DNA of 64,000 nucleotides from an uncultured delta proteobacterium (GTDB taxonomy: Bacteria; Desulfobacterota; Desulfobacteria; Desulfobacterales; SG8-13): positions 898,538 through 962,537 of the forward strand of contig CAWKCK010000017.1 in NCBI GenBank assembly GCA_963848135.1, in the 5' to 3' direction. The notes beneath the pieces are model-generated. The model saw only the letters and a list, made by a program, of their open reading frames with translations. It was not told the origin of the DNA and searched no databases. Positions 43,991-56,990 of the stretch are shown here, in pieces. The translations under genes were made by a program, and so were the position numbers. The number at the start of each line of letters is the position of its first letter. Position 1 is the stretch's first letter.

Positions 43991-45739
43991 ATGCGAAAAG
44001 ACCGTAAAACGACCAGGGGAGACCTGATCGGCGCAGAAATAGGTACAATACGAAAAAGCGGTCCCGGCCGCCTCAATATTGTGCTGGTCTACCCCAACAG
44101 TTACCACGTCGGCATGTCAAACCTCGGATTTCAGGTGGTCTACCGCCTGTTGAACCGGTTTGACGGTGTGGTCTGCGAAAGGGCCTTTTTACCGAACGAC
44201 GAAACGCAACCGGGGAACGACAGCAAAAGTCTCGAATCCGGAAAACCGCTGAAGGATTTTGATGTTATCGCGTTTTCGATCTCATTTGAAAACGACTATC
44301 CGAATGTGCTCAGAACGTTGGAAACAGCAGGCCTCCCCCTGCAATCACAATATCGCCATACCAAACACCCCCTGGTAATTGCAGGGGGAGTGGCCTGTTT
44401 CCTGAATCCCGAACCCCTATCGTCATTTATCGACTGCTTTCTGCTCGGTGAAGCCGAAGCCATGTTGGAAAATTTCTGCGCACGACTTGTGGCAGACGGC
44501 TTAACCGGAGGGGGGGATAAATGGTCGATCCTTTCGGCGTGCGCCCGCCGGATCCAGGGCGTTTATGTCCCGCGGTTCTATCGACCCGTCTATACGGACG
44601 GCGGGCTCTTGAAAGCCATAGAACCGCTGGCCGATGTCCCCGAAAAAGTACGCCGGACGTATATCGCCGATCTATCGACGGTACCGGCCTGCAGTACCGT
44701 GGTCACCCCTCATACCGCCTTCGACCGCACGTTTTTAATCGAAGTCGGTCGGGGCTGCCCCCACGGCTGCCGATTCTGCACCGCCGGTTTTATCTACCGC
44801 CCGCCCCGCTTTCGCCCCCTGTCACTTCTTCAGGCTTGCATACAGGAAGGCGCAGCCGTTACCGACCGAATCGGATTGGCCGGAGCAGCCGTCTCGGATC
44901 TCCCGGAAATCCGAGAACTTTGCAGCCAGGCCCAGCAGGGCAATATCCGCATGTCCTTCAGCTCCCTGAGAGCTGACGCCCTCGATGAAGACTTGCTGGC
45001 AGTCCTGGATCACAGCAACGTCAAAACCGCCACGATCGCACCGGATGCCGGCTCCGAAAGAATGCGGCGCGTCATCAACAAGGGTATTGACGAACAGGCG
45101 ATCCTGAGGGCCGCATCCCTCCTCGTGGCCAAAGGCATACCGAATCTCAAGCTCTATTTCATGGTTGGCCTGCCGACTGAAACAGGAGATGATGTCGAGG
45201 CCATCGTCACACTCTGTAAAAGGATTAAGCATGTATTTCTGCGGGAAAGCCGAAATAAAGGCCGCATCGGAGACATCACCGTCAGCCTGAATTCATTCGT
45301 GCCGAAACCGGTTACGCCCTTCCAGTGGACGGCCATGGACGACATCAGTACGCTCAAACAAAAGATTCGGCAGGTGAAAAACGGCCTTAAAAAAGTGCCC
45401 AACATTCGGGTGCATGCCGATATCCCGCGCTGGGCGTATATCCAGGCGCTTTTGTCCCGGGGGGATCGCCGGGTCGGCGACCACCTTCTTCTGGCCCACC
45501 GGAACGGACAGAATTGGCCCCAAACACTGAAAGAATCTCCTATCAATGCCGATTTCTACGTCCTTCGTGAGCGTGCGCTCTCTGAGAAATTGCCATGGGA
45601 CTTCATCGATCACGGTATCGAAAAATCCTACCTGGCCCGGGAATACCGCAAAGCCCAAAAAGGCCAATCATCACCACCCTGTCCGATGACTGACTGCACC
45701 CTCTGCGGGGTCTGCCATGATGAGGGCGCAGACAGTTGA
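43991..45739 (+). CDS. Radical SAM protein with a B12-binding-like N-terminal domain (uncharacterised rSAM family)
   Basis: 582 aa. The motif GRGCPHGCRFCTAG gives the CxxxCxxC cluster. The N-terminus reads LNIVLVYPNSYHVGMSNLG. The C-terminus has a cysteine cluster, CPMTDCTLCGVC. Confidence 0.8.
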   Translation: MRKDRKTTRGDLIGAEIGTIRKSGPGRLNIVLVYPNSYHVGMSNLGFQVVYRLLNRFDGVVCERAFLPNDETQPGNDSKSLESGKPLKDFDVIAFSISFENDYPNVLRTLETAGLPLQSQYRHTKHPLVIAGGVACFLNPEPLSSFIDCFLLGEAEAMLENFCARLVADGLTGGGDKWSILSACARRIQGVYVPRFYRPVYTDGGLLKAIEPLADVPEKVRRTYIADLSTVPACSTVVTPHTAFDRTFLIEVGRGCPHGCRFCTAGFIYRPPRFRPLSLLQACIQEGAAVTDRIGLAGAAVSDLPEIRELCSQAQQGNIRMSFSSLRADALDEDLLAVLDHSNVKTATIAPDAGSERMRRVINKGIDEQAILRAASLLVAKGIPNLKLYFMVGLPTETGDDVEAIVTLCKRIKHVFLRESRNKGRIGDITVSLNSFVPKPVTPFQWTAMDDISTLKQKIRQVKNGLKKVPNIRVHADIPRWAYIQALLSRGDRRVGDHLLLAHRNGQNWPQTLKESPINADFYVLRERALSEKLPWDFIDHGIEKSYLAREYRKAQKGQSSPPCPMTDCTLCGVCHDEGADS

Positions 45740-45911: not shown

Positions 45912-46352
45912 ATGAGTTCTAAAAAAGAACTAAAGCTTGCCTACGGAATGGCAATCGCGTTATTCGTTGTGGGTGTCGTAAGCTATGCATATACAGCCTT
46001 TTCAGCCAAACCACCCGAACTGCCGGTGCGCATTATGTATCATAGCGCAGCAGGCAAAGTTCTCTTCGATCATAAAACACATACAGCCGATACGGGATAC
46101 GGTTTTTCCTGTTATGACTGCCATCATCATCCGGAAGACGATGAGTCCGCCTTGCGTGCCTGCGGCGACTGTCACAACCTGCCGGTAGAAACGGGACAAT
46201 TTCCGGAATCATGCATCGAATGCCACGACCAGGACGAAATCGAAGGCTCGGAAGTCTCTAAAAGGGGCGATGCCTTTCATCTTCAGTGCATCAACTGCCA
46301 CAAAGACGCCGGTGCCGGCCCCGAAGACTGTAATTCCTGTCATGTGTTGTAA
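45912..46352 (+). CDS. Membrane-anchored multihaem cytochrome c (class III/c3-like, five CxxCH)
   Basis: The ATG at 45912 has a GAAAGGA SD. A TM anchor (LAYGMAIALFVVGVVSYAYTAF) is followed by CYDCH, CGDCH, CIECH, CINCH and CNSCH plus extra His residues for bis-His ligation. The ORF-track start at 45834 is probably spurious. Confidence 0.85.
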   Translation: MSSKKELKLAYGMAIALFVVGVVSYAYTAFSAKPPELPVRIMYHSAAGKVLFDHKTHTADTGYGFSCYDCHHHPEDDESALRACGDCHNLPVETGQFPESCIECHDQDEIEGSEVSKRGDAFHLQCINCHKDAGAGPEDCNSCHVL

Positions 46353-46428: not shown

Positions 46429-47712
46429 ATGATACGAAAATCGTTTTTCGGCCTTGCTAAACCCCGCTTCGAATACGCAGCGCTCACCGGTGCAATGCCG
46501 GAAATCCTGTCCATCCCCCCACCGAAATCGGTAAGATTCTTAATCAATGGTTCCTTTGAGGCCAGAGGTAAGGAAGCCGTCAAACCGGGAGATGACGTCA
46601 TGCGCGGCCAAAAGCTGATTCACTCTGAGACTGGCGGCGCCTACGCGATGGCAACCGTCAGCGGAACCGTGACGGCAGTCATGCCGCATTCGGGTGATTT
46701 TGGAAAAGCCTGCACGGCGGTCACTATCGATGTGTCAGCGGTGGATGAAAGCGACGAACCCAGCGAAAATAATCAAAACCTGCCGACACTGGACACCGCC
46801 CTCGACACTTTGGCGTGTTTGCCAGGGGCCCCTCCGTTTGAAAAGTTCAGGAACCCGGAAACCCCGATTCACACGGTTGTCATTTATGGTGGTGATAGCG
46901 ATCTTCTGATCAACACCAACCAGATCGTCATTAAAACAAAGTTGGACGCGGTCAAAGCCGGAATCGCAGCCCTCAAGCATATCACCGGCGTGGAAAAGGT
47001 CATCGTGGCCATCCCCGGTGAAATCATTCAGGGGTACGGTCATATCGGTGCCGAAGTGAAAAACGTCGCTCTGGAATATCCGGCGGCATTTCCCCAGATG
47101 ATCATGAAAAATGCCCTCGGGCAGGTCGTACCGGCCGGTCAGACACCGGAAGATCTCGGTGTGACTTTCATGACGGCTGAAGCCGTGGCATCCCTCGGGG
47201 AGGCCGTTGAGATCGGACGTCATCCGGTCAGAAAACTTATTACGGTCGCCAACAAGGCCGGTGGCCTGAAGTTGGTATCGGCCGTCGTGGGAACCCCCAT
47301 CGGAGAAATTTTACATGCCGTCGGCATCACCATGGAAGAAAGTGACCGCCTTATCATCGGCGGGCCCATGACCGGAACGGCCATCTATTCCGAAGATTTC
47401 CCGGTCGAACCCGACACGAGTGCCATCATCGTGCAGGACAAGTCAGACGTATCCCACGTTTCCGACTATCCATGCATAAACTGTGGAGACTGCATCCGCA
47501 TATGTCCGGTCGATATTCCGATCAATATGCTGGTGCGTTTTCTCGAAGCCGGGCACTACGAGGATGCGGCGGATATGTATGATCTTTATTCTTGCATCGA
47601 ATGTGGTCTGTGCAGTTTTGTCTGTGTGGCAAAGATACCCATATTTCAGTACATCCGGTTGGCTAAATTCGAAATTAGCCGGGTAAATGCAGCGGAGGCG
47701 GTGAATGAATAG
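46429..47712 (+). CDS. rnfC: RnfC-like subunit with intact 2x[4Fe-4S] motifs but degenerate NuoF-type FMN/NADH motifs
   Basis: 427 aa, colinear with RnfC. The C-terminal CINCGDCIRICP and CIECGLCSFVC motifs are present. The glycine loop reads LPGAPPFEKF and the ECEPY site reads GDSDLL. Confidence 0.85.
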   Translation: MIRKSFFGLAKPRFEYAALTGAMPEILSIPPPKSVRFLINGSFEARGKEAVKPGDDVMRGQKLIHSETGGAYAMATVSGTVTAVMPHSGDFGKACTAVTIDVSAVDESDEPSENNQNLPTLDTALDTLACLPGAPPFEKFRNPETPIHTVVIYGGDSDLLINTNQIVIKTKLDAVKAGIAALKHITGVEKVIVAIPGEIIQGYGHIGAEVKNVALEYPAAFPQMIMKNALGQVVPAGQTPEDLGVTFMTAEAVASLGEAVEIGRHPVRKLITVANKAGGLKLVSAVVGTPIGEILHAVGITMEESDRLIIGGPMTGTAIYSEDFPVEPDTSAIIVQDKSDVSHVSDYPCINCGDCIRICPVDIPINMLVRFLEAGHYEDAADMYDLYSCIECGLCSFVCVAKIPIFQYIRLAKFEISRVNAAEAVNE

Positions 47713-48664
47713 TCGCAAAAAGTTCATTGTTTCACACGCGCCCTTCTGGCACTATGGCAGCAATATCAGCGAGCGCAGTTATCACACCATGCTCGCAGCG
47801 CTGCCGGCCGTTTTATTGGGCATGATTCAGTTCGGACTCCCGGCACTGGCCGTCGTGGCCCTTTCCGTATCGTCCGCTATTCTATGGGAATGGGCCTTTG
47901 CGGCCATCACGAAACGCCCCAACACGATTGGCGATGGCAACGCCGCGCTTATCGGCCTGTTGCTCGCCATGCTCATACCGGCCACGACACCCTGGTGGGC
48001 AGTGCTGACAGGCACTTTCATTGCCATTGTGATCTGTAAGCAAATTTTCGGTGGTATCGGCGGGAACTCCTTCAGCCCGGTGGTTCTGGCGATTGCCATT
48101 TTGGCCCTTTCCTGGAAGGATATTTTCGATTTCGATTCGGCGCTCGTCAATTACGACCTGGGGTTCACCATGTATCATCCTCTGGTGGCCCTGAAAGCCT
48201 TCGGATCGAATGTCGTCACCGATTTCTCGATTGGAGATCTGTTGCTAGGACGTCAGGTCGGGGGCATCGGCTCCACCTTTGGGTTGGGATTGATTCTCGG
48301 CGGTATCTACCTGATTCTCAGGGGATTTATTCGCTGGGAAATCTCACTCTCATTTCTCGTGGGTATCCTGGTATCGGCAACGCTTTTTCACATGGCTGAT
48401 CCAGCCAGGTTTGCGGGTCCGCTCTTTCATCTGCTGACCGGTTACACGCTGATCGGCGCCTTTTTTCTGGCCACCGAAGACTCGTCGTCACCAGTCAATT
48501 TTATTCCCATGCTGGTTTACGGGGCGGCCGGCGGGATAGTAACGGTCATGATCAGAAACATCGGCGCTTATGCCGAAGGCGTCATCTATGCCATTCTGGT
48601 GATAAACATGGTCAATCCGTTGCTCGATAAGATCCGGCCCAAAGCATTAGGAAAGGTAGTCTAA
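47705..48664 (+). CDS. rnfD: Rnf complex membrane subunit RnfD
   Basis: 319 aa, polytopic, NqrB/RnfD-like (for example FFLATEDSSSP and MVNPLLDK). It overlaps the rnfC stop by 8 nt. Confidence 0.9.
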   Translation: MNSRKKFIVSHAPFWHYGSNISERSYHTMLAALPAVLLGMIQFGLPALAVVALSVSSAILWEWAFAAITKRPNTIGDGNAALIGLLLAMLIPATTPWWAVLTGTFIAIVICKQIFGGIGGNSFSPVVLAIAILALSWKDIFDFDSALVNYDLGFTMYHPLVALKAFGSNVVTDFSIGDLLLGRQVGGIGSTFGLGLILGGIYLILRGFIRWEISLSFLVGILVSATLFHMADPARFAGPLFHLLTGYTLIGAFFLATEDSSSPVNFIPMLVYGAAGGIVTVMIRNIGAYAEGVIYAILVINMVNPLLDKIRPKALGKVV

Positions 48665-48665
48665 C

Positions 48666-49259
48666 ATGCGTGAAATGATCCAAATGGTCGTGGTCCTCAC
48701 CATCCTAAGCTGCGTTTCCGGCGGTCTGCTCGCCTACATCAAAAATGGAACCAAGGAACAGATCGAATACCAGCAACTGGTATTCGTGAAAGGCCCGGCA
48801 ATCCGTGCCATTCTAGAGGGATCCGCCAACGACCCCATCACCGACCGTTTCAAGATCGAAGACGGCGATACCGAGCGCAGCTTCTTCGCTGGCGTCTTCG
48901 ACGGTAAGGCCAACACCGTGACGTTCGAAACCTCAGGCAAAGGCTTCGGTGGCGACATCGGCGTGATGGTCGGTGTCAACCTTGACGATGACAAAATCGT
49001 TGGTGTTGGCGTCACCACCCACAGCGAAACACCGGGAATCGGTGCTTTAGCCAAAACCAATGTCGCGTTCAGCAGCCAGTTCAAAGGAATGCCGCTGAAG
49101 GATACGTTTAAGGTCAAGACCGACGGGGGCCAAGTGGACGCTTTGTCAGGGGCCACCATAACCTCACGGGGAGTGAGCGCTGCATTGACTGATGCCGTCA
49201 AAATGTACGAAAGCCTCAAACCCCAAATCGCCGACAAAATGAAGTCATTTTCCAAATAA
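48666..49259 (+). CDS. rnfG: Rnf complex subunit RnfG (periplasmic FMN-binding)
   Basis: 197 aa with an N-terminal anchor and the canonical flavinylation motif DALSGATITSRG. Confidence 0.9.
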   Translation: MREMIQMVVVLTILSCVSGGLLAYIKNGTKEQIEYQQLVFVKGPAIRAILEGSANDPITDRFKIEDGDTERSFFAGVFDGKANTVTFETSGKGFGGDIGVMVGVNLDDDKIVGVGVTTHSETPGIGALAKTNVAFSSQFKGMPLKDTFKVKTDGGQVDALSGATITSRGVSAALTDAVKMYESLKPQIADKMKSFSK

Positions 49260-49275
49260 ATAACGGGAGAACAAA

Positions 49276-49881
49276 ATGGCGCGATCGATCGCTCAGGAGT
49301 TTACCAAAGGCCTATGGGATGAAATACCGCCGTTTCGTCTGGTTCTGGGACTCTGTCCCGTCCTTGCGGTCACCAAAACAGTCGAGAACGGCTGGGGGAT
49401 GGGCCTGGCAACGACATTCGTGTTGGTGTGCTCCAATGTCCTGGTTTCTCTGTTGCGAAAAGCTATTCCATCCAAGGTCAGAATTGCCTGTTTTATCATC
49501 ATCATCGCTACGTTCGTGACCGTGGTCGAACTGGCCATGCAGGCGTATGCCTATCCCCTCTTCTTGAAACTGGGTATCTTTATCCCCCTGATAGTCGTCA
49601 ATTGCATCGTTCTGGGGCGGGCTGAAGCCTTCGCATCGAAAAACGGTTTTGTGCGATCCACTCTAGACGGTCTCGGTATCGGTGTCGGCTTCACCCTGGC
49701 GCTTGCGGCACTGGGCGCCGTGCGGGAGCTGCTCGGAACTGGATCTCTGACATTATACGAGACACCGATACAGATTTTTGGCTCATCCTATCAACCGTTT
49801 GGCTTTATGGTCGAGGCCCCCGGCGCATTTGTCGGATTAGGACTGATGCTGTGCATTATGAACATGCTGGGGAAAAAATAG
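49276..49881 (+). CDS. rnfE: Rnf complex membrane subunit RnfE
   Basis: 201 aa, NqrD/RnfE-like (GLCPVLAVT and VNCIVLGRAEAFA). Confidence 0.9.
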   Translation: MARSIAQEFTKGLWDEIPPFRLVLGLCPVLAVTKTVENGWGMGLATTFVLVCSNVLVSLLRKAIPSKVRIACFIIIIATFVTVVELAMQAYAYPLFLKLGIFIPLIVVNCIVLGRAEAFASKNGFVRSTLDGLGIGVGFTLALAALGAVRELLGTGSLTLYETPIQIFGSSYQPFGFMVEAPGAFVGLGLMLCIMNMLGKK

Positions 49882-49890
49882 GAGATCGTC

Positions 49891-50466
49891 ATGGGTGACT
49901 ACATCGTTCTTGCCATCAGCTGTATTCTCATTAACAATATCCTGTTGGCCCAATACCTGGGAAACTGCCCGTTCCTCGGTACATCCAAAAAAATGGAAAC
50001 CGCCGTTGGTATGGCCATGGCAGTGGTTTTTGTTCTGGTAATGGCGGGGATGATCACCTGGGTGGTCAACGCTTTTGTCCTGGTTAAATTCGGCATGGAA
50101 TACATGCGCACGGTGGCATTCATTCTTGTGATCGCCTCCCTTGTGCAATTCGTCGAGATGTTCCTGAAGAAAAGCATACCCGCACTTTATGCCGGACTGG
50201 GAATATTTCTGCCCCTGATCACAACCAACTGTGCGGTTATGGGTGTCTGCCTGATCAACATCAACGAGGAGTATAACTTCCTCCAGGCTCTGGTAACCTC
50301 TTTTGCCTATGCCGTCGGCTTCGGCCTAGCCCTGATTTTATTTGCCGGCGTCCGAGAGCGCATTCTGCTTGCCAGGGTGCCGCGACCGCTTCAGGACACC
50401 TCCATTGCTCTGGTGACTGCGGGTGTTTTGTCTCTGACCTTTTTTGCTTTCAAAGGCTGGGTGTAA
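49891..50466 (+). CDS. rnfA: Rnf complex membrane subunit RnfA
   Basis: 191 aa, NqrE/RnfA-like (NNILLAQYLGNCPFLG and ITTNCAVMGV). Confidence 0.9.
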   Translation: MGDYIVLAISCILINNILLAQYLGNCPFLGTSKKMETAVGMAMAVVFVLVMAGMITWVVNAFVLVKFGMEYMRTVAFILVIASLVQFVEMFLKKSIPALYAGLGIFLPLITTNCAVMGVCLININEEYNFLQALVTSFAYAVGFGLALILFAGVRERILLARVPRPLQDTSIALVTAGVLSLTFFAFKGWV

Positions 50467-50740
50467 AAGTTAATCTGAAACGATGCCGCGTGCTGCTGAA
50501 TCGGGATCGACGACACGACGGCACGCTGCTAATGTGACGCGCTACCTGGTAAATGCAACCAACTCATCCACTGCGCAACTCATCTCCAAAGTCCATCCAA
50601 ACAGCGGACACTCGTCCGGTTTCCTTAGTATTTACGCCATCCCAACAGAGGATTTGCATTTTCAGCAGGCCTGAGTGGGAGAACCAGGGTCGGTTGCTGT
50701 ATATCGCCACCGGGCAACCGTCAATCCGAGGGAGGTAGCG

Positions 50741-50769
50741 TTGACAGGACAACGGCAACTCGATTTAAT
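50741..50769 (+). promoter_or_regulatory. Candidate internal sigma70 promoter upstream of rnfB
   Basis: TTGACA (50741-50746), a 17-nt spacer, then TTTAAT (50764-50769). It sits inside the 397-nt rnfA-rnfB spacer, about 95 nt upstream of the rnfB start. Confidence 0.3.
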
Positions 50770-50863
50770 TTGTCGATGAACGGGATTCGGCCACAGCGAG
50801 TCGAGTTGAGAAACCGAACTGCTTGATTCAAAAACCATAAATGAACCGTTACCGGAGGACAAC

Positions 50864-52957
50864 TTGATAGAAGCCGTTCTTGTAATGTTGGGGTTGGGCG
50901 CTGCCTGCGCCTCGGCGCTGACAGTCGCGTCAAAAGTTTTTTATGTTTATGAAGATCCGCGCATCGCCGAAGTCGAGGGCATGCTGGCCGGAGCGAATTG
51001 TGGTGGTTGCGGCTACCCGGGCTGTTCGGGAGCGGCCGCTGCCGTGGTCGACGGCAAGGCACCGCCCAGCGTCTGCGTTGTGGCCGACCTTGAAACCGCG
51101 ATCAACGTCGCCGGGGTGATGGGAATCGACCCTGGCTCCGTGGAGCCCCTGAAATCCCTGAACACATGCCTGGGCGGTGACCGCGCGGATGACAAGTATT
51201 ACTACTCCGGCGTCCAAAGCTGCCGCGCGCTAAGCGCCCTGTATGGCGGAAAGCGTGAATGCCGGGTGGGGTGTCTGGGGTTCGGTGACTGTATCGCTTC
51301 GTGCCGGTTTGACGCAATCGATATGGGCCCGGATGGGTATCCGGTTGTCAACGAGATGAAGTGCGTCGGCTGCGGTGCTTGTGAAAAGGCCTGCCCGAAG
51401 TCGATCCTGCAGGTCCGCACCATGTCCCAACGCCTGCTGCATTTCAATCAGGAAGACGACGCCCTGGCGCCCTGTCAGCAGACCTGCCCCGCTGAAATCG
51501 ACATACCGCGATATATCGCCTGCATCAGGGATGGCGATTATGAAGCTGCCGTTAATACCATCCGCGAGCGCAACCCGCTGCTATTGACCTGTGGACGGGT
51601 CTGTCCGCACCCCTGTGAAGACTATTGCCGACGCGGCATCGAAGAAGAACCGGTATCCATCAACCAGTTGAAACGTTTTGCCGCCGACTACGAAATGAAT
51701 TCCGGCAGCAGGCTACCGATCTCCTGCGCAGCGGATACGGACAAGAAAGTGGCGATTATTGGCGGCGGCCCCGCCGGATTGACCTGTGCCTATTTTTTAA
51801 GGCGACTCGGCCATGGCGTCACGATTATCGATATGATGCCCAAATTGGGAGGAATGGTCCGCTACGGCATTCCCGAATACAGGCTGCCAAAAGAAGTATT
51901 GCAATGGGAGATCGATGGGATCCTGAACCTGGGGGTCGAACACCGCCCCAGCGTCAAGCTTGGCGAAGACTTTACGCTGGCCGATTTAGAGGCGGAAGGT
52001 TTTGACGCCGTTTTTATGGGAATCGGCGCCTGGAAGGATTACAGTTTGAGAATCGAGGGCGAAGATATGAAGGGGTGCTACACGGGCATCGATTTTCTGA
52101 CCAAATTTGCCCTCAACCAGCAATCCGATACGAACAAAAAGGATATTCCCATCGGCCGTAAATGTGCGGTGATCGGCGGAGGGAACACCGCCATCGATTG
52201 TGTTCGCACCCTGGTGCGATTAGGGGCCGAAGAAGTCAGCATTGTCTACCGGCGGACGCGAAAGGAAATGCCTGCCAACGACGTCGAAATTGTGGCCGCT
52301 GAACACGAGGGGGTCAAATTCCATTTCCTGGCCGCACCGACCCGCGTCGTCAGTGACGACGACGGCAATGCCACGCATCTGGAATTTCTAAAAATGGAGC
52401 TCGGTGAACCAGACGCCAGTGGAAGGCGGCGCCCGGTACCGGTAGAGGGTTCCGAAACCCTGATGGAAGCCGACATGATCGTGTCCGCCATCGGCCAGGG
52501 CCCGGATGTCGGCTTCATGGAAAAGGACAACCGCCTAAAGGAAATGAATGTCACCCGCTGGAGTACCATCGATGCCAATCCGGAAATACTCCAGTCGAAC
52601 ATCCCGAATGTTTTCGCTGCCGGTGACGCCTATACCGGTGCTTCCCTTGTCGTTGAGGCCATTGGCGGGGGCCGAAGAGCGGCGCGGGCGATTCATCTCT
52701 ACCTTGCCGGTCACGAGGTCGAACCCGTCTTGAAGTCGCTGCGCAAAAAACATATTCCTGAATCTCTGTTTGGGCAGGTAGACGGTATCCGTCCGACGGT
52801 GCGCGCAGTCATGCCCGAATTACCGGTGCAGGAGCGGATAAAAACCTTTGAAGAAGCCGATTTGGTACTTGAGGAAAAAGACGCCGTAGCGGAATCACGC
52901 CGCTGCCTCTCCTGCTGCCGATTATGCTATAATCCAGACATCAAACCTGCAGCGTAA
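50864..52957 (+). CDS. rnfB: RnfB fused to a GltD/NfnB/SudA-like NAD(P)H-dependent FAD oxidoreductase module
   Basis: 697 aa, TTG start with a GGAGGA SD 4 nt upstream. Residues 1-185 form an RnfB core: membrane anchor, CGGCGYPGC cluster and two ferredoxin motifs including CVGCGACEKACP. Residues from about 195 to 697 form the GltD-like part: CQQTCPAEIDIPRY...GRVCPHPCEDYC, VAIIGGGPAGLTCAY, AVIGGGNTAIDC and VFAAGD. Confidence 0.85.
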   Translation: MIEAVLVMLGLGAACASALTVASKVFYVYEDPRIAEVEGMLAGANCGGCGYPGCSGAAAAVVDGKAPPSVCVVADLETAINVAGVMGIDPGSVEPLKSLNTCLGGDRADDKYYYSGVQSCRALSALYGGKRECRVGCLGFGDCIASCRFDAIDMGPDGYPVVNEMKCVGCGACEKACPKSILQVRTMSQRLLHFNQEDDALAPCQQTCPAEIDIPRYIACIRDGDYEAAVNTIRERNPLLLTCGRVCPHPCEDYCRRGIEEEPVSINQLKRFAADYEMNSGSRLPISCAADTDKKVAIIGGGPAGLTCAYFLRRLGHGVTIIDMMPKLGGMVRYGIPEYRLPKEVLQWEIDGILNLGVEHRPSVKLGEDFTLADLEAEGFDAVFMGIGAWKDYSLRIEGEDMKGCYTGIDFLTKFALNQQSDTNKKDIPIGRKCAVIGGGNTAIDCVRTLVRLGAEEVSIVYRRTRKEMPANDVEIVAAEHEGVKFHFLAAPTRVVSDDDGNATHLEFLKMELGEPDASGRRRPVPVEGSETLMEADMIVSAIGQGPDVGFMEKDNRLKEMNVTRWSTIDANPEILQSNIPNVFAAGDAYTGASLVVEAIGGGRRAARAIHLYLAGHEVEPVLKSLRKKHIPESLFGQVDGIRPTVRAVMPELPVQERIKTFEEADLVLEEKDAVAESRRCLSCCRLCYNPDIKPAA

Positions 52958-52995
52958 ATCTCCCCAACGCCACCAAACAAAATATAGCTGCCCAG

Positions 52996-53023
52996 AAGGG
53001 CACCGTAGCAAAGCGGTGCCCTT
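52996..53023. terminator. Bidirectional terminator between convergent rnfB and rluD
   Basis: AAGGGCACCG-8 nt loop-CGGTGCCCTT, a 10-bp stem with a T-rich tail on the plus strand. Confidence 0.6.
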
Positions 53024-53028
53024 TCTAT

Positions 53029-54932: not shown

Positions 54933-56990
54933 TTAACCCATTTTTATCAGGATGGGCACCAGCAACAGCGCCACGACGTTCAGGATCTTGATCATCGGGT
55001 TGATGGCCGGTCCGGCGGTATCTTTGTAAGGATCGCCGACGGTGTCACCGGTAACGGCGGCTTTATGCGCATCACTGCCCTTACCACCCAGGTTGCCATC
55101 TTCGATGTACTTCTTGGCGTTATCCCAAGCCGCGCCACCCGTTGTCATGGAAATGGCCAAGAACAGACCGGTGACGATACTGCCGATCAGCAGACCGCCC
55201 AGGGCGATTTTGCCCAGGAGCAGGCCGACGATGATCGGTACGGCAACCGGCAGCAGGGCCGGAATGACCATTTCCTTGAGGGCAAACTTGGTCACGATGT
55301 CAACGCAGGCCGCGTAATCCGGTTTGGCGGTCCCTTCCATGATTCCCGGGATCTCGCGGAACTGCCGCCGGACCTCATCGACGACGGCACCACCGGCTTT
55401 GCCGACGGCCTTCATACAAATGGAACCAAAGAGGTAAGGCAGCATACCGCCGATGAAGAGACCGATGATGACGTTCACGTTGCTGAGATCAAAGCTCAAT
55501 TGCTCGCCACCACCATGGAGAGCGAACTCCTGGGTATACGCGGCAAACAGCACCAGAGCGGCCAGTGCGGCCGAGCCGATGGCATAACCTTTGGTGACGG
55601 CCTTGGTGGTGTTACCAACCGCATCCAGTGGATCGGTGACGGCACGCACACTATCATCCATCCCGGCCATTTCGGCAATACCACCGGCGTTGTCGGTGAT
55701 CGGACCGTAAGCATCGATGGCAATGACCATACCGGTCATGGAGAGCATCGACATGGCCGCCATGGCAATACCGTAAAGTCCCGCGAAATAGTAAGCCGTA
55801 CCGATGGCTAAACAGATGGCCAGCGCCGGAAGAGCGGTGGCTTCCATACTGACAGCCAGACCGGCGATGATGTTGGTGCCATGGCCGGTGGTCGAAGCTT
55901 CAGCCACGAATTTGACCGGTTTGCGAATGCCGGTGTAGTACTCGGTGATCATGACGATAATGACGGTCAGGGCCAGCCCGACCAGGGTCGAGTAATAAAT
56001 CGCCATCGGGGTGATCACCCTGACACCGGGAACCTCGAGTGTCGGCAGCATTTGCCGGCAGGCGATAAAGAAGGCAATCGCCGCTAAGATGGCCGCTCCG
56101 AACATGCCTTTGTACAACGCGCCCATGATGTATTCATTGGCACCCAGGCGAACAAACCCGACCGCGATGATCGATGCAACGATGGAAATTGCGCCCAGCA
56201 CCAGTGGAAATTCAGTGGCCATGAGATGATCGGGAAAGAGCAGGTTTCCCAACAACATGGCGGCCACCGCTGTAACGGCATATGTCTCGAAGAGGTCCGC
56301 TGCCATCCCGGCACAGTCGCCGACATTGTCGCCGACGTTATCCGCGATAACCGCCGGGTTGCGGGGATCGTCTTCGGGAATACCGGCTTCCACTTTTCCG
56401 ACCAGGTCAGCGCCGACATCGGCGCCCTTGGTGAAAATTCCACCGCCAAGACGGGCAAAGATAGAAATCAGGCTGCCGCCGAATCCAAGGGCCACCAGGG
56501 CGATAACCGCATCCCGAACGGGTGTACCGGTGTTAACAAGGATGGTATAAAAACCGGCCACGGCGGTCAGAGCCAGTCCGGCCACGATCATACCGGTCAC
56601 AGCGCCACCTCTGAAGGCCATGGACAGGGCCTTGGCTAGCCCGCCTTTGGCCGCTTCGGCCGTGCGCACATTGGCGATAACGGAAACCCGCATGCCGATG
56701 TAACCGGCCATAAACGAGGCCGCCGCACCAACGAGAAAACCGACGGCGGTTTTGATGCCAAGCGTAAAGGCGATCAAAACGAACAAAACAACGGCCGCAA
56801 GGCTCATGCTTTTCAACTGGCGATTGAGATAAGCGATCGCTCCGGTCTTAATTGCTTCGGCGATGTCAGTCATTTTTTCATCGCCTGCCGGCGAATTTTT
56901 TACCATGCTCGCGGTAATGATCGAGAATAGCACACCCGCGATGCCGACTAATGTACAAATTAACGGTAGGTAGTTCATCCTTCCCTCCAT
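54933..56990 (-). CDS. hppA: Membrane-integral ion-translocating pyrophosphatase
   Basis: 685 aa, about 16 TM helices, with motifs [21 protein letters not shown] and [14 protein letters not shown]. The [10 protein letters not shown] motif carries the Lys variant associated with K+-independent enzymes. Confidence 0.95.

Follow-up and report, generated by a model that had tools for sequence, protein, structure and literature searches.

In a stretch of 64,000 nucleotides from an uncultured delta proteobacterium of the Desulfobacterales lineage SG8-13 (GenBank assembly GCA_963848135.1, contig CAWKCK010000017.1, positions 898,538 to 962,537, forward strand; hereafter, the window), we identified an operon with the gene order cytochrome c-rnfC-D-G-E-A-B, in which the last gene encodes an RnfB fused to a GltD-like flavoprotein module. 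This protein, referred to below as the large RnfB, is the RnfB subunit of an Rnf2 complex, i.e., the Desulfobacula toluolica Tol2-type complex, which is an already published architecture. The genes and features of the locus, numbered from the first nucleotide of the window, are the following.

45912-46352, plus strand: membrane-anchored multihaem cytochrome c, the first gene of the operon (Pfam Cytochrom_CIII, E 7e-10)
46429-47712, plus strand: RnfC variant, with two [4Fe-4S] motifs kept and degenerate flavin mononucleotide (FMN)/NADH motifs
47705-48664, plus strand: RnfD without the threonine for covalent FMN attachment (PF03116, E 1e-84), with His158 encoded at 48176-48178
48666-49259, plus strand: RnfG, the periplasmic FMN subunit (PF04205, E 3e-20), with the flavinylation motif SGAT kept
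49276-49881, plus strand: RnfE, a membrane subunit (PF02508, E 5e-66)
49891-50466, plus strand: RnfA, a membrane subunit (PF02508, E 1e-52)
50467-50863, plus strand: non-coding rnfA-rnfB spacer of 397 bp with no convincing open reading frame (ORF)
50864-52957, plus strand: large rnfB ORF, uninterrupted, 697 codons, TTG start, with GGAGGA 5 nucleotides upstream
50864-51433, plus strand: RnfB core, amino acids (aa) 1-190, comprising a transmembrane helix, an N-terminal [4Fe-4S] domain and the first ferredoxin-like domain
51467-51703, plus strand: Fer4_20 core, aa 202-280, covering positions 30-111 of the 113 of the Pfam profile, with the first 29 positions wanting
51743-52669, plus strand: flavin adenine dinucleotide (FAD) and NAD(P)H Rossmann domains, aa 294-602 (Pyr_redox_2), with the motifs GGGPAG, GGGNTA, YRRTR (aa 462-466) and AAGD
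52802-52927, plus strand: C-terminal tail, aa 647-688, the circularly permuted first Fer4_20 segment, which ends in RC(681)LSC(684)C(685)RLC(688)
52995-53024, plus strand: terminator-like hairpin ending the operon, with a 12-bp stem (7 G-C pairs) followed by a T-rich tail

Given that the cytochrome c and rnfCDGEA genes adjoin the large ORF upstream and that the hairpin follows it, the ORF is assigned as the rnfB of this operon. A preliminary description of the locus had noted that the ORF runs on without a stop past the last RnfB ferredoxin motif (C167-P178), and had interpreted the extension as a GltD-like NAD(P)H:FAD module fused in frame to the C-terminus of RnfB. The single 697-codon ORF confirms the former observation (coordinate 51446 corresponds to codon 195, with an extension of ~500 aa past that motif), and the motifs on which the interpretation was based are all found at the residue numbers assigned to them, namely CVGCGACEKACP at aa 167-178, CQQTCPAEIDIPRY at aa 204-217, NPLLLTCGRVCPHPCEDYCRRG at aa 237-258, KVAIIGGGPAGLTCAYFL at aa 295-312, CAVIGGGNTAIDCVRT at aa 434-449, VFAAGD at aa 583-588 and CLSCCRLC at aa 681-688. 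In Pfam, the RnfB FeS domain (PF04060) is detected at aa 41-72 (E 7e-11), a 4Fe-4S dicluster domain at aa 137-180, Fer4_20 (the DPD/GltD Fe-S domain, PF14691) at aa 202-280 (87 bits) and Pyr_redox_2 (PF07992) at aa 294-602 (108 bits, E 1e-30). NCBIfam models for RnfB match aa 1-190 (E ~1e-48), and GltD-like (glutamate-synthase-small-subunit-like) models match aa ~190-689 (E 1e-152 to 1e-75); the score for NF009410 (PRK12771, an NAD(P)-binding protein subfamily), 508.2 bits over aa 198-689, falls just under the curated cut-off of 516 bits. Together with the matches to solved structures discussed below, these results bear out the fusion; the C-terminal part, for which a failure to match GltD-type profiles had been considered, is matched strongly by the GltD-like NCBIfam models.

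A search of 5.8 billion proteins, clustered at 90% identity, retrieved at least 120 clusters of full-length homologues (680-724 aa, 72-90% identical over 97-100% of the query), all of which carry PF04060, PF14691 and PF07992, and clustering at 50% leaves at least seven separate clusters of full-length fusions, down to 37% identity. In a scan of one genome per species, 313 genomes were found to contain a relative, and the best 80 of these 313 were used for the locus comparisons and alignments. These 80 relatives are all full length, and nearly all carry the label Desulfobacterales, Desulfobacteraceae or Desulfococcaceae; one is encoded on the complete Desulfonema magnum chromosome and another by an Olavius symbiont, and the nearest of them is a protein from a metagenome-assembled genome (MAG; L034) that is 96% identical to the large RnfB. 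An intact ORF of more than 650 aa is present in 79 of the 80 loci. The alignment of all 80 sequences shows 27 invariant cysteines, all Fe-S cysteines included, and conserved residues at the junction between the RnfB core and the GltD-like module. The same domain architecture, which the preliminary description had proposed to look for among RnfB homologues, thus recurs in these relatives. That description had also raised, a priori, the possibility of an assembly or sequencing artefact, or of a pseudogene, joining separate rnfB and gltD-like genes, and nothing beyond this speaks for it. Given that full-length fusions of the same length recur across these clusters and species genomes, a complete chromosome among them, with a conserved junction, an assembly artefact or frameshift is excluded; the comparative data refute this explanation, to which we assign next to no probability.

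The order cytochrome c-rnfC-D-G-E-A-B recurs in ~66 of the 80 related loci, and in most of the loci without it the contig ends just upstream of rnfB. Two loci (L073:8001-10067 and L026:3800-5857) encode a full-length large RnfB (69-72% identical) within usable flanks that contain no rnf genes; the neighbours in L073 encode a CheA-like kinase, an SPFH protein, a DUF218 protein and a Big_5 protein. These genes could be either stand-alone copies or parts of rearranged operons.

For the Tol2-type Rnf with a large RnfB, Doerries et al. (2016; PMC5109826) cite Woehlbrand et al. (2016, Proteomics). In D. multivorans, both Rnf2 (Tol2 type) and Rnf1 (A. woodii type) are present, and all Rnf2 subunits except RnfA2 (five of six) have been detected under all tested substrate conditions (PMC5109826). 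Subsequently, a 2025 study in Science Advances assigned Rnf2 to the core genome of the Desulfobacteraceae, reported that six strains produce it abundantly and constitutively, noted a cytochrome c3 gene in the Rnf2 cluster through which electrons were suggested to reach Qrc, and described the remaining Rnf2 subunits in its supplementary text as "very similar" (PMC11887813). The large RnfB, the changed RnfC and the cytochrome gene of Rnf2 are reported independently in the literature (PMC5109826; PMC11887813).

The operon in the window shows the features by which Rnf2 is defined in those studies, i.e., a 697-aa RnfB with Pyr_redox_2 at aa 294-602, an RnfC without the NADH-ubiquinone oxidoreductase (FMN/NADH) signature and a cytochrome c3-type gene in the cluster (45912-46352). 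It shares the ~700-aa size of RnfB and the gene order with the Rnf2/Tol2 type as well, its nearest homologues come from Desulfobacterales, and we found no architectural difference, the window organism being an uncultured relative. In the Rnf2 literature, the central RnfC domain alone is sometimes lost, with which the detection of RnfC_N in the present RnfC agrees. The finding is a correct rediscovery of a known variant. Compared with the accessible parts of the published Rnf2 descriptions, the present analysis adds the permutation of Fer4_20, the predicted Lys ligand, the affinity to the Stn type, the YRR motif, an RnfC that keeps both clusters after losing its FMN/NADH motifs, and an RnfD that has lost its FMN threonine. 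A literature search returned no biochemical or structural study of Rnf2, and a review of RNF and NQR (PMC12174285) makes no mention of Desulfobac-, fusion/fused, GltD or glutamate synthase.

No large gaps interrupt the alignment of the RnfB core to residues 2-195 of A. woodii RnfB (9eri_B, E 6.5e-43) or to residues 7-195 of C. tetanomorphum RnfB (7zc6_B, E 3.9e-42), and C102 and C120 fall within these alignments. Its N-terminal [4Fe-4S] domain contains C46, C49, C54 and C71, and all 14 cysteines of the core are invariant in the 80 sequences. The N-terminal helix, PF04060, the dicluster domain and the rnfC/D/G/E/A neighbours all identify the protein as an RnfB. Canonical clostridial-type RnfBs continue past residue ~195 with one to three more ferredoxin-like domains, in place of which the GltD-like module is found here. 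The preliminary description had placed the module at the C-terminus of RnfB; a fusion behind the RnfB core is indeed what we observe, but the module replaces the distal polyferredoxin domains instead of being added behind a complete RnfB. In A. woodii RnfB, the distal ferredoxin-like domains are thought to capture ferredoxin, acting as a "fishing hook" (PMC11889175).

The GltD-like module spans aa ~181-697. Scored by sequence alignment, its best solved relative is the Bfu-type NfnA of Caldicellulosiruptor (9bov_A, 423 bits), followed by archaeal Nfn-Bfu NfnA (9n5u_A, 406 bits), Sporomusa StnC (8oh5_C, 385 bits), P. furiosus NfnL (5jca_L, 331 bits), T. maritima NfnB (4ylf_B, 325 bits), GltD (2vdc_G, 237 bits) and DPD (1h7x_A and others, 180 bits); with the non-bifurcating NADPH-binding modules of the first three it is 45-50% identical over ~500 aa. 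These scores assign the module to the Stn/Bfu-NfnA type, with NfnB, GltD and DPD more distant, and so answer in outline where the GltD-like part belongs relative to NfnB, GltD and similar proteins, a placement that the preliminary description had called for.

The ...EAxRCLxC segment, which is N-terminal in NfnB and GltD, is C-terminal in the large RnfB. Residues 647-684 of the tail (...EKDAVAESRRCLSC) align to the N-terminal residues 8-45 of the NfnB structures 5jca_L and 4ylf_B, directly abutting the main alignment, which begins at residue 46 or 49, and also to the equivalent C-terminal tails of 9bov_A (to residue 569) and 8oh5_C (to residue 568). The tail alone matches positions 1-28 of the Fer4_20 profile (E 0.0018), and when aa 641-684 are set in silico before aa 201-300, a full match to the profile is obtained (positions 1-111 of 113), with the score rising from 86.5 to 109.2 bits. 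These alignments show a circularly permuted Fer4_20 domain, as in StnC and NfnA, with an N-terminus that is free for fusion behind another Fe-S domain.

In Csac NfnA, the ligands of cluster A7 are C108, C147, C151 and K170 (PMC11829005), and by alignment with this protein, C208, C247, C251 and K270 are predicted to be the ligands of the FAD-proximal cluster in the large RnfB; the distal cluster would be bound by C204, C255, C681 and C684. The five cysteines C204, C208, C247, C251 and C255 as well as K270 are invariant in the 80 sequences, as are the tail cysteines C681, C684, C685 and C688. The preliminary description had suggested that CLSCCRLC could bind an extra cluster. Given that RCLSC corresponds to the permuted first segment of Fer4_20, it is in itself no evidence for such a cluster, which is not needed to account for C681 and C684, as these would complete the usual two [4Fe-4S] clusters; C685 and C688 are left over and invariant. 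Along with C243, also invariant in the main family, these two residues lie outside the predicted ligand sets, and additional or alternative cluster ligation by the three is possible. With the invariant C243 and C446 added, the CxxCCxxC tail gives the protein a surplus of cysteines over what two [4Fe-4S] clusters require. In the tail, C685 is restricted to the main family, whereas C688 is conserved in all fusion clusters, including the divergent ones.

The Lys at position 270 aligns with K170, the ligand of the StnC/NfnA-type proximal cluster. In bifurcating NfnB the corresponding ligand is Glu, whereas in StnC and NfnA it is a strictly conserved and functionally essential Lys, and StnC has been shown experimentally to be a non-bifurcating NADPH entry module (PMC10482914). 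With regard to the nucleotide, the stretch VYRRTRKEMPA is nearly identical, in the sequence alignment, to that of the NADPH-using homologues StnC, NfnA and NfnB, and YRR is invariant in all 80 large RnfBs. The Arg pair of this motif, located after strand 2 of the second Rossmann fold, presumably binds the 2'-phosphate of NADPH, as in NfnB and GltD. Because the YRR stretch matches that of NADPH-using homologues and is invariant, we infer that the nucleotide of the large RnfB is NADPH.

Five divergent clusters of RnfB-GltD fusions (P0122, P0124, P0128, P0160 and P0192; 37-45% identical, mostly from Desulfobacterales MAGs) are without YRR. They keep a Lys at the proximal-cluster ligand position (Glu in P0124) and the RCLxCxxxC tail, and may be NADH-type or nucleotide-free paralogues.

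StnC (8OH5) and Bfu-NfnA (9BOV, 9N5U) share with the large RnfB the permuted ...E(A/S)xRCLxC tail, the Lys at the ligand position and the YRR(T/S)xxEMPA stretch, and also have an Fe-S domain fused ahead of the module. The remaining hallmarks of this type, namely a length of 960-1180 aa, N-terminal [2Fe-2S] and NuoG/Fdh-like domains and soluble HydBC-like bifurcating partners, are not those of the large RnfB, in which the N-terminus is a membrane-anchored RnfB belonging to an ion-pumping complex and the chain ends at aa 697, after the tail; no HydBC-like genes are present in the operon. NfnB/NfnL (4YLF, 5JCA) and GltD (2VDC) agree with the module in fold and in cofactors (FAD, NADPH and two [4Fe-4S] clusters) but differ in the unpermuted, N-terminal location of the RCxxC segment, in their NfnA/S or GltB partners and, in NfnB, in the Glu at the proximal cluster. 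An assignment to GltD proper was rejected (TIGR01318, 329.7 against a cut-off of 483; TIGR01317, 251.4 against 447.7), and there is no gltB-like gene in the operon between 43991 and 53997. NfnB/NfnL proper was rejected as well, given Lys270 at the Glu position, the C-terminal RCxxC and the absence of an adjacent NfnA-like gene.

RnfC and RnfD deviate from the canonical pattern at specific sites. Over its whole length RnfC matches the solved RnfCs (8ahx_C, 7zc6_C and 9eri_C; E 1e-34 to 1e-30), and the eight cysteines that belong to its two [4Fe-4S] clusters are conserved without exception (66 of 66 sequences). Its G(L/M)GGAxFP motif is replaced by CLPGAPPF and its ECEPY motif by DSDLL, a degeneracy that is family-wide; in the Pfam scan, Complex1_51K scores 29.3 bits, under the cut-off of 31.2, RnfC_N is detected (32.9 bits) and SLBB gives no match. 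RnfD matches RnfD structures with E 1e-45 and NqrB with E 1e-18. The canonical TTAT(156)PL of the A. woodii and C. tetanomorphum RnfDs, in which T156 of the A. woodii protein is the FMN attachment site (PMC11889175), aligns to FTMYH(158)PL here. Among 67 relatives, the commonest residues at position 158 are Tyr (47), Phe (7) and Ala (5), Thr not being one of these three; the residues of the other eight were not enumerated.

The flavin site of RnfG and the cysteines of RnfE and RnfA are retained. The SGAT(164)ITSR motif of RnfG aligns with TGATITSK of 7zc6_G, and T164 is invariant in 66 of 66 sequences. In RnfE, C27 and C110 (invariant in 67 of 67) are candidate ligands of the intramembrane [2Fe-2S] cluster, together with the candidate cysteine pair of RnfA, C26 (71 of 72) and C114 (72 of 72). 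The cytochrome begins with a hydrophobic helix and carries five CxxCH motifs; its start was set at the ATG at 45912 after inspection of the ORF, which is listed from 45834. It is encoded upstream of rnfC in 64 related loci, and all five haem motifs are found in 60 of 65 sequences. Compared with canonical Rnf (9ERI, 7ZC6 and A. vinelandii 8AHX), the complex has the same six homologous subunits, the same RnfG FMN site and RnfA/E cluster ligands, but the distal RnfB domains are replaced, the RnfC FMN/NADH motifs and the RnfD FMN threonine are lost, and the cytochrome is added.

Taking these features together, we propose that in Rnf2 NADPH enters at the large RnfB and that electrons leave through RnfG to the five-haem cytochrome c, a scheme to which we give an even chance of being correct. 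NADPH would donate a hydride to the FAD of the module, the flavin being non-bifurcating as in StnC, and single electrons would pass from the Lys-ligated proximal cluster to the distal cluster and on to the three clusters of RnfB. From there they would reach the RnfA/E [2Fe-2S] centre, in a step coupled to Na+ export, and then the periplasmic FMN of RnfG, which would deliver them mainly to the membrane-anchored multihaem cytochrome c of the operon and, through it, to Qrc and menaquinone. In A. woodii, Na+ coupling resides at RnfA/E and not at RnfD, which serves only as an electron conduit (PMC11889175), so that exit at RnfG would still be coupled. The cytochrome would be the most economical exit because RnfD lacks covalent FMN and RnfC lacks a nucleotide site.

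Several observations weigh against this scheme. Which way electrons flow in Rnf2, which nucleotide it prefers and what its acceptor is are all deductions, and the published descriptions speak of NAD+/NADH, not NADPH (PMC5109826; PMC11887813). The cytochrome has been detected only in lactate-adapted cells of D. multivorans (PMC5109826), and it was not detected in the proteomic studies of the Desulfobacteraceae (PMC11887813). The chief difficulty is the invariance of the eight cluster cysteines of RnfC, which implies that the RnfD-RnfC branch is still under selection, with a role outside the model; RnfD could bind FMN non-covalently, and the distal cluster of the GltD-like module could still be a docking site for ferredoxin, as in NfnB. 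An AlphaFold2 model of the large RnfB (697 aa, 44-sequence alignment) has a mean predicted local distance difference test (pLDDT) score of 65, with the Fe-S regions below 50, and is too poor to check the cofactor geometry or the grouping of the cysteines.

In the dual-donor view of the literature, reduced ferredoxin would still be oxidised at RnfB, after docking on the distal cluster, and NAD(P)H would feed, or be fed from, the same Fe-S chain by way of the flavin site, so that the complex would link the ferredoxin and NAD(P) pools and pump Na+. The domain has been read as interacting with NAD+/NADH besides ferredoxin, with Rnf2 linking the NADH, ferredoxin and NADP pools (PMC11887813), and the two [4Fe-4S] clusters of this fold form the ferredoxin-reducing branch in NfnB (PMC10482914). 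However, the polyferredoxin part proposed to act as the hook in A. woodii RnfB is absent, a soluble Fe-S chain with both a ferredoxin and an NADPH site would short-circuit these pools and bypass the membrane, and RnfC has no nucleotide site with which to serve as the acceptor; on balance, we regard a dual-donor complex as unlikely. Alternatively, the complex might run from the other end, as a ferredoxin:NADP+ oxidoreductase in which ferredoxin or another low-potential donor feeds RnfC, and electrons pass through RnfD, RnfG and RnfA/E to RnfB, where NADP+ is reduced at the module. The two [4Fe-4S] clusters that RnfC keeps after the loss of its flavin would make a possible docking site, and the NADPH-type motif of the module fits such a role. 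Nevertheless, the FMN threonine of RnfD that is needed for the step between RnfG and RnfD is missing, and in the current mechanism electron flow from RnfC to RnfB is coupled to Na+ import (PMC11889175), so that downhill transfer from ferredoxin to NADP+ would be expected to dissipate energy and not to conserve it, which renders this arrangement decidedly improbable.

A bifurcating head, in which the FAD of the module would send one electron uphill to ferredoxin and the other into the membrane chain toward cytochrome c or quinone, as in NfnB, appears more doubtful still. The module is homologous to NfnB-type proteins (331 bits to 5jca_L), and R340, the equivalent of NfnB R201 and StnC R239, is present and invariant. 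Against this, the proximal cluster has the Lys of the Stn/Bfu type and not the Glu of NfnB, the operon encodes no high-potential partner similar to NfnA/NfnS, and StnC, among the nearest solved relatives, has lost bifurcation.

The overall logic of the scheme that we favour, with NADPH entering at RnfB, as NADH does at NqrF, and exit through RnfG, would resemble that of Na+-NQR, with a dehydrogenase in the "B" position and RnfC, like NqrA, no longer serving as the nucleotide site. In both systems, a pyridine-nucleotide:FAD:Fe-S module would be joined to the helix at this position, the RnfC homologue would be without nucleotide, and the membrane core is shared. This parallel is an analogy and not membership, because the folds of NqrF (FNR-like, with a [2Fe-2S] cluster) and of the GltD-like module are unrelated. 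Furthermore, NqrA has no cofactor at all whereas RnfC here has two clusters, NqrB keeps its covalent FMN, and the acceptor of NQR is a quinone. Membership in Na+-NQR was rejected, given that there is no FNR-like domain, that RnfC keeps its eight cluster cysteines and that RnfD is far closer to RnfD structures than to NqrB and lacks the FMN threonine. In a scenario proposed for the evolution of NQR, the entry subunit was exchanged, with NqrF taking the place of RnfB, and RnfC then decayed to NqrA (PMC4014512). We tentatively hypothesize, somewhat short of even confidence, that Rnf2 is an NADPH-fed, not ferredoxin-fed, Na+ pump convergent with Na+-NQR, in which the Stn-type flavoprotein would be the sole entry and RnfG with the cytochrome the exit, the covalent FMN of RnfD would have been abandoned, and the conserved clusters of RnfC would belong either to another exit or to a branch with a regulatory role.

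Within the operon, the 397-bp rnfA-rnfB spacer gave no Rfam match at E <= 1 and nothing convincing in scans for ORFs, promoters and terminators. The length of this spacer varies between 9 and 400 bp in 72 related loci, and it is long only in the closest relatives (L001, L034 and L004); an internal promoter peculiar to this lineage may lie within it, or a remnant. The cytochrome gene has as its immediate upstream neighbour a gene for a 582-aa radical SAM protein (Radical_SAM_N2 and Radical_SAM; 43991-45739), and a gene for such a protein occupies the same position in roughly 30 related loci. Further downstream, at 54933-56990 on the minus strand, a 685-aa, highly hydrophobic ORF resembles, by eye, membrane-bound pyrophosphatase (HppA type).

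Much of the organic carbon in marine sediments is oxidised by Desulfobacteraceae, and the electron path through the altered B, C and D subunits of Rnf2 is a real question in the bioenergetics of sulfate reducers. The window adds no new architecture, but the sequence analysis sharpens the hypothesis in three ways. The entry module is probably of the non-bifurcating, NADPH-type Stn class; the permutation of its Fe-S domain explains the fusion behind another Fe-S domain; and the absence of the RnfD flavin site throughout the family suggests that electrons exit at RnfG and cytochrome c. If Rnf2 is indeed an NADPH-fed Na+ pump convergent with Na+-NQR, complete-oxidising marine sulfate reducers would be able to conserve energy while passing electrons from NADPH to their periplasmic cytochromes, and cytochrome c would feed Qrc, menaquinone and sulfate reduction.

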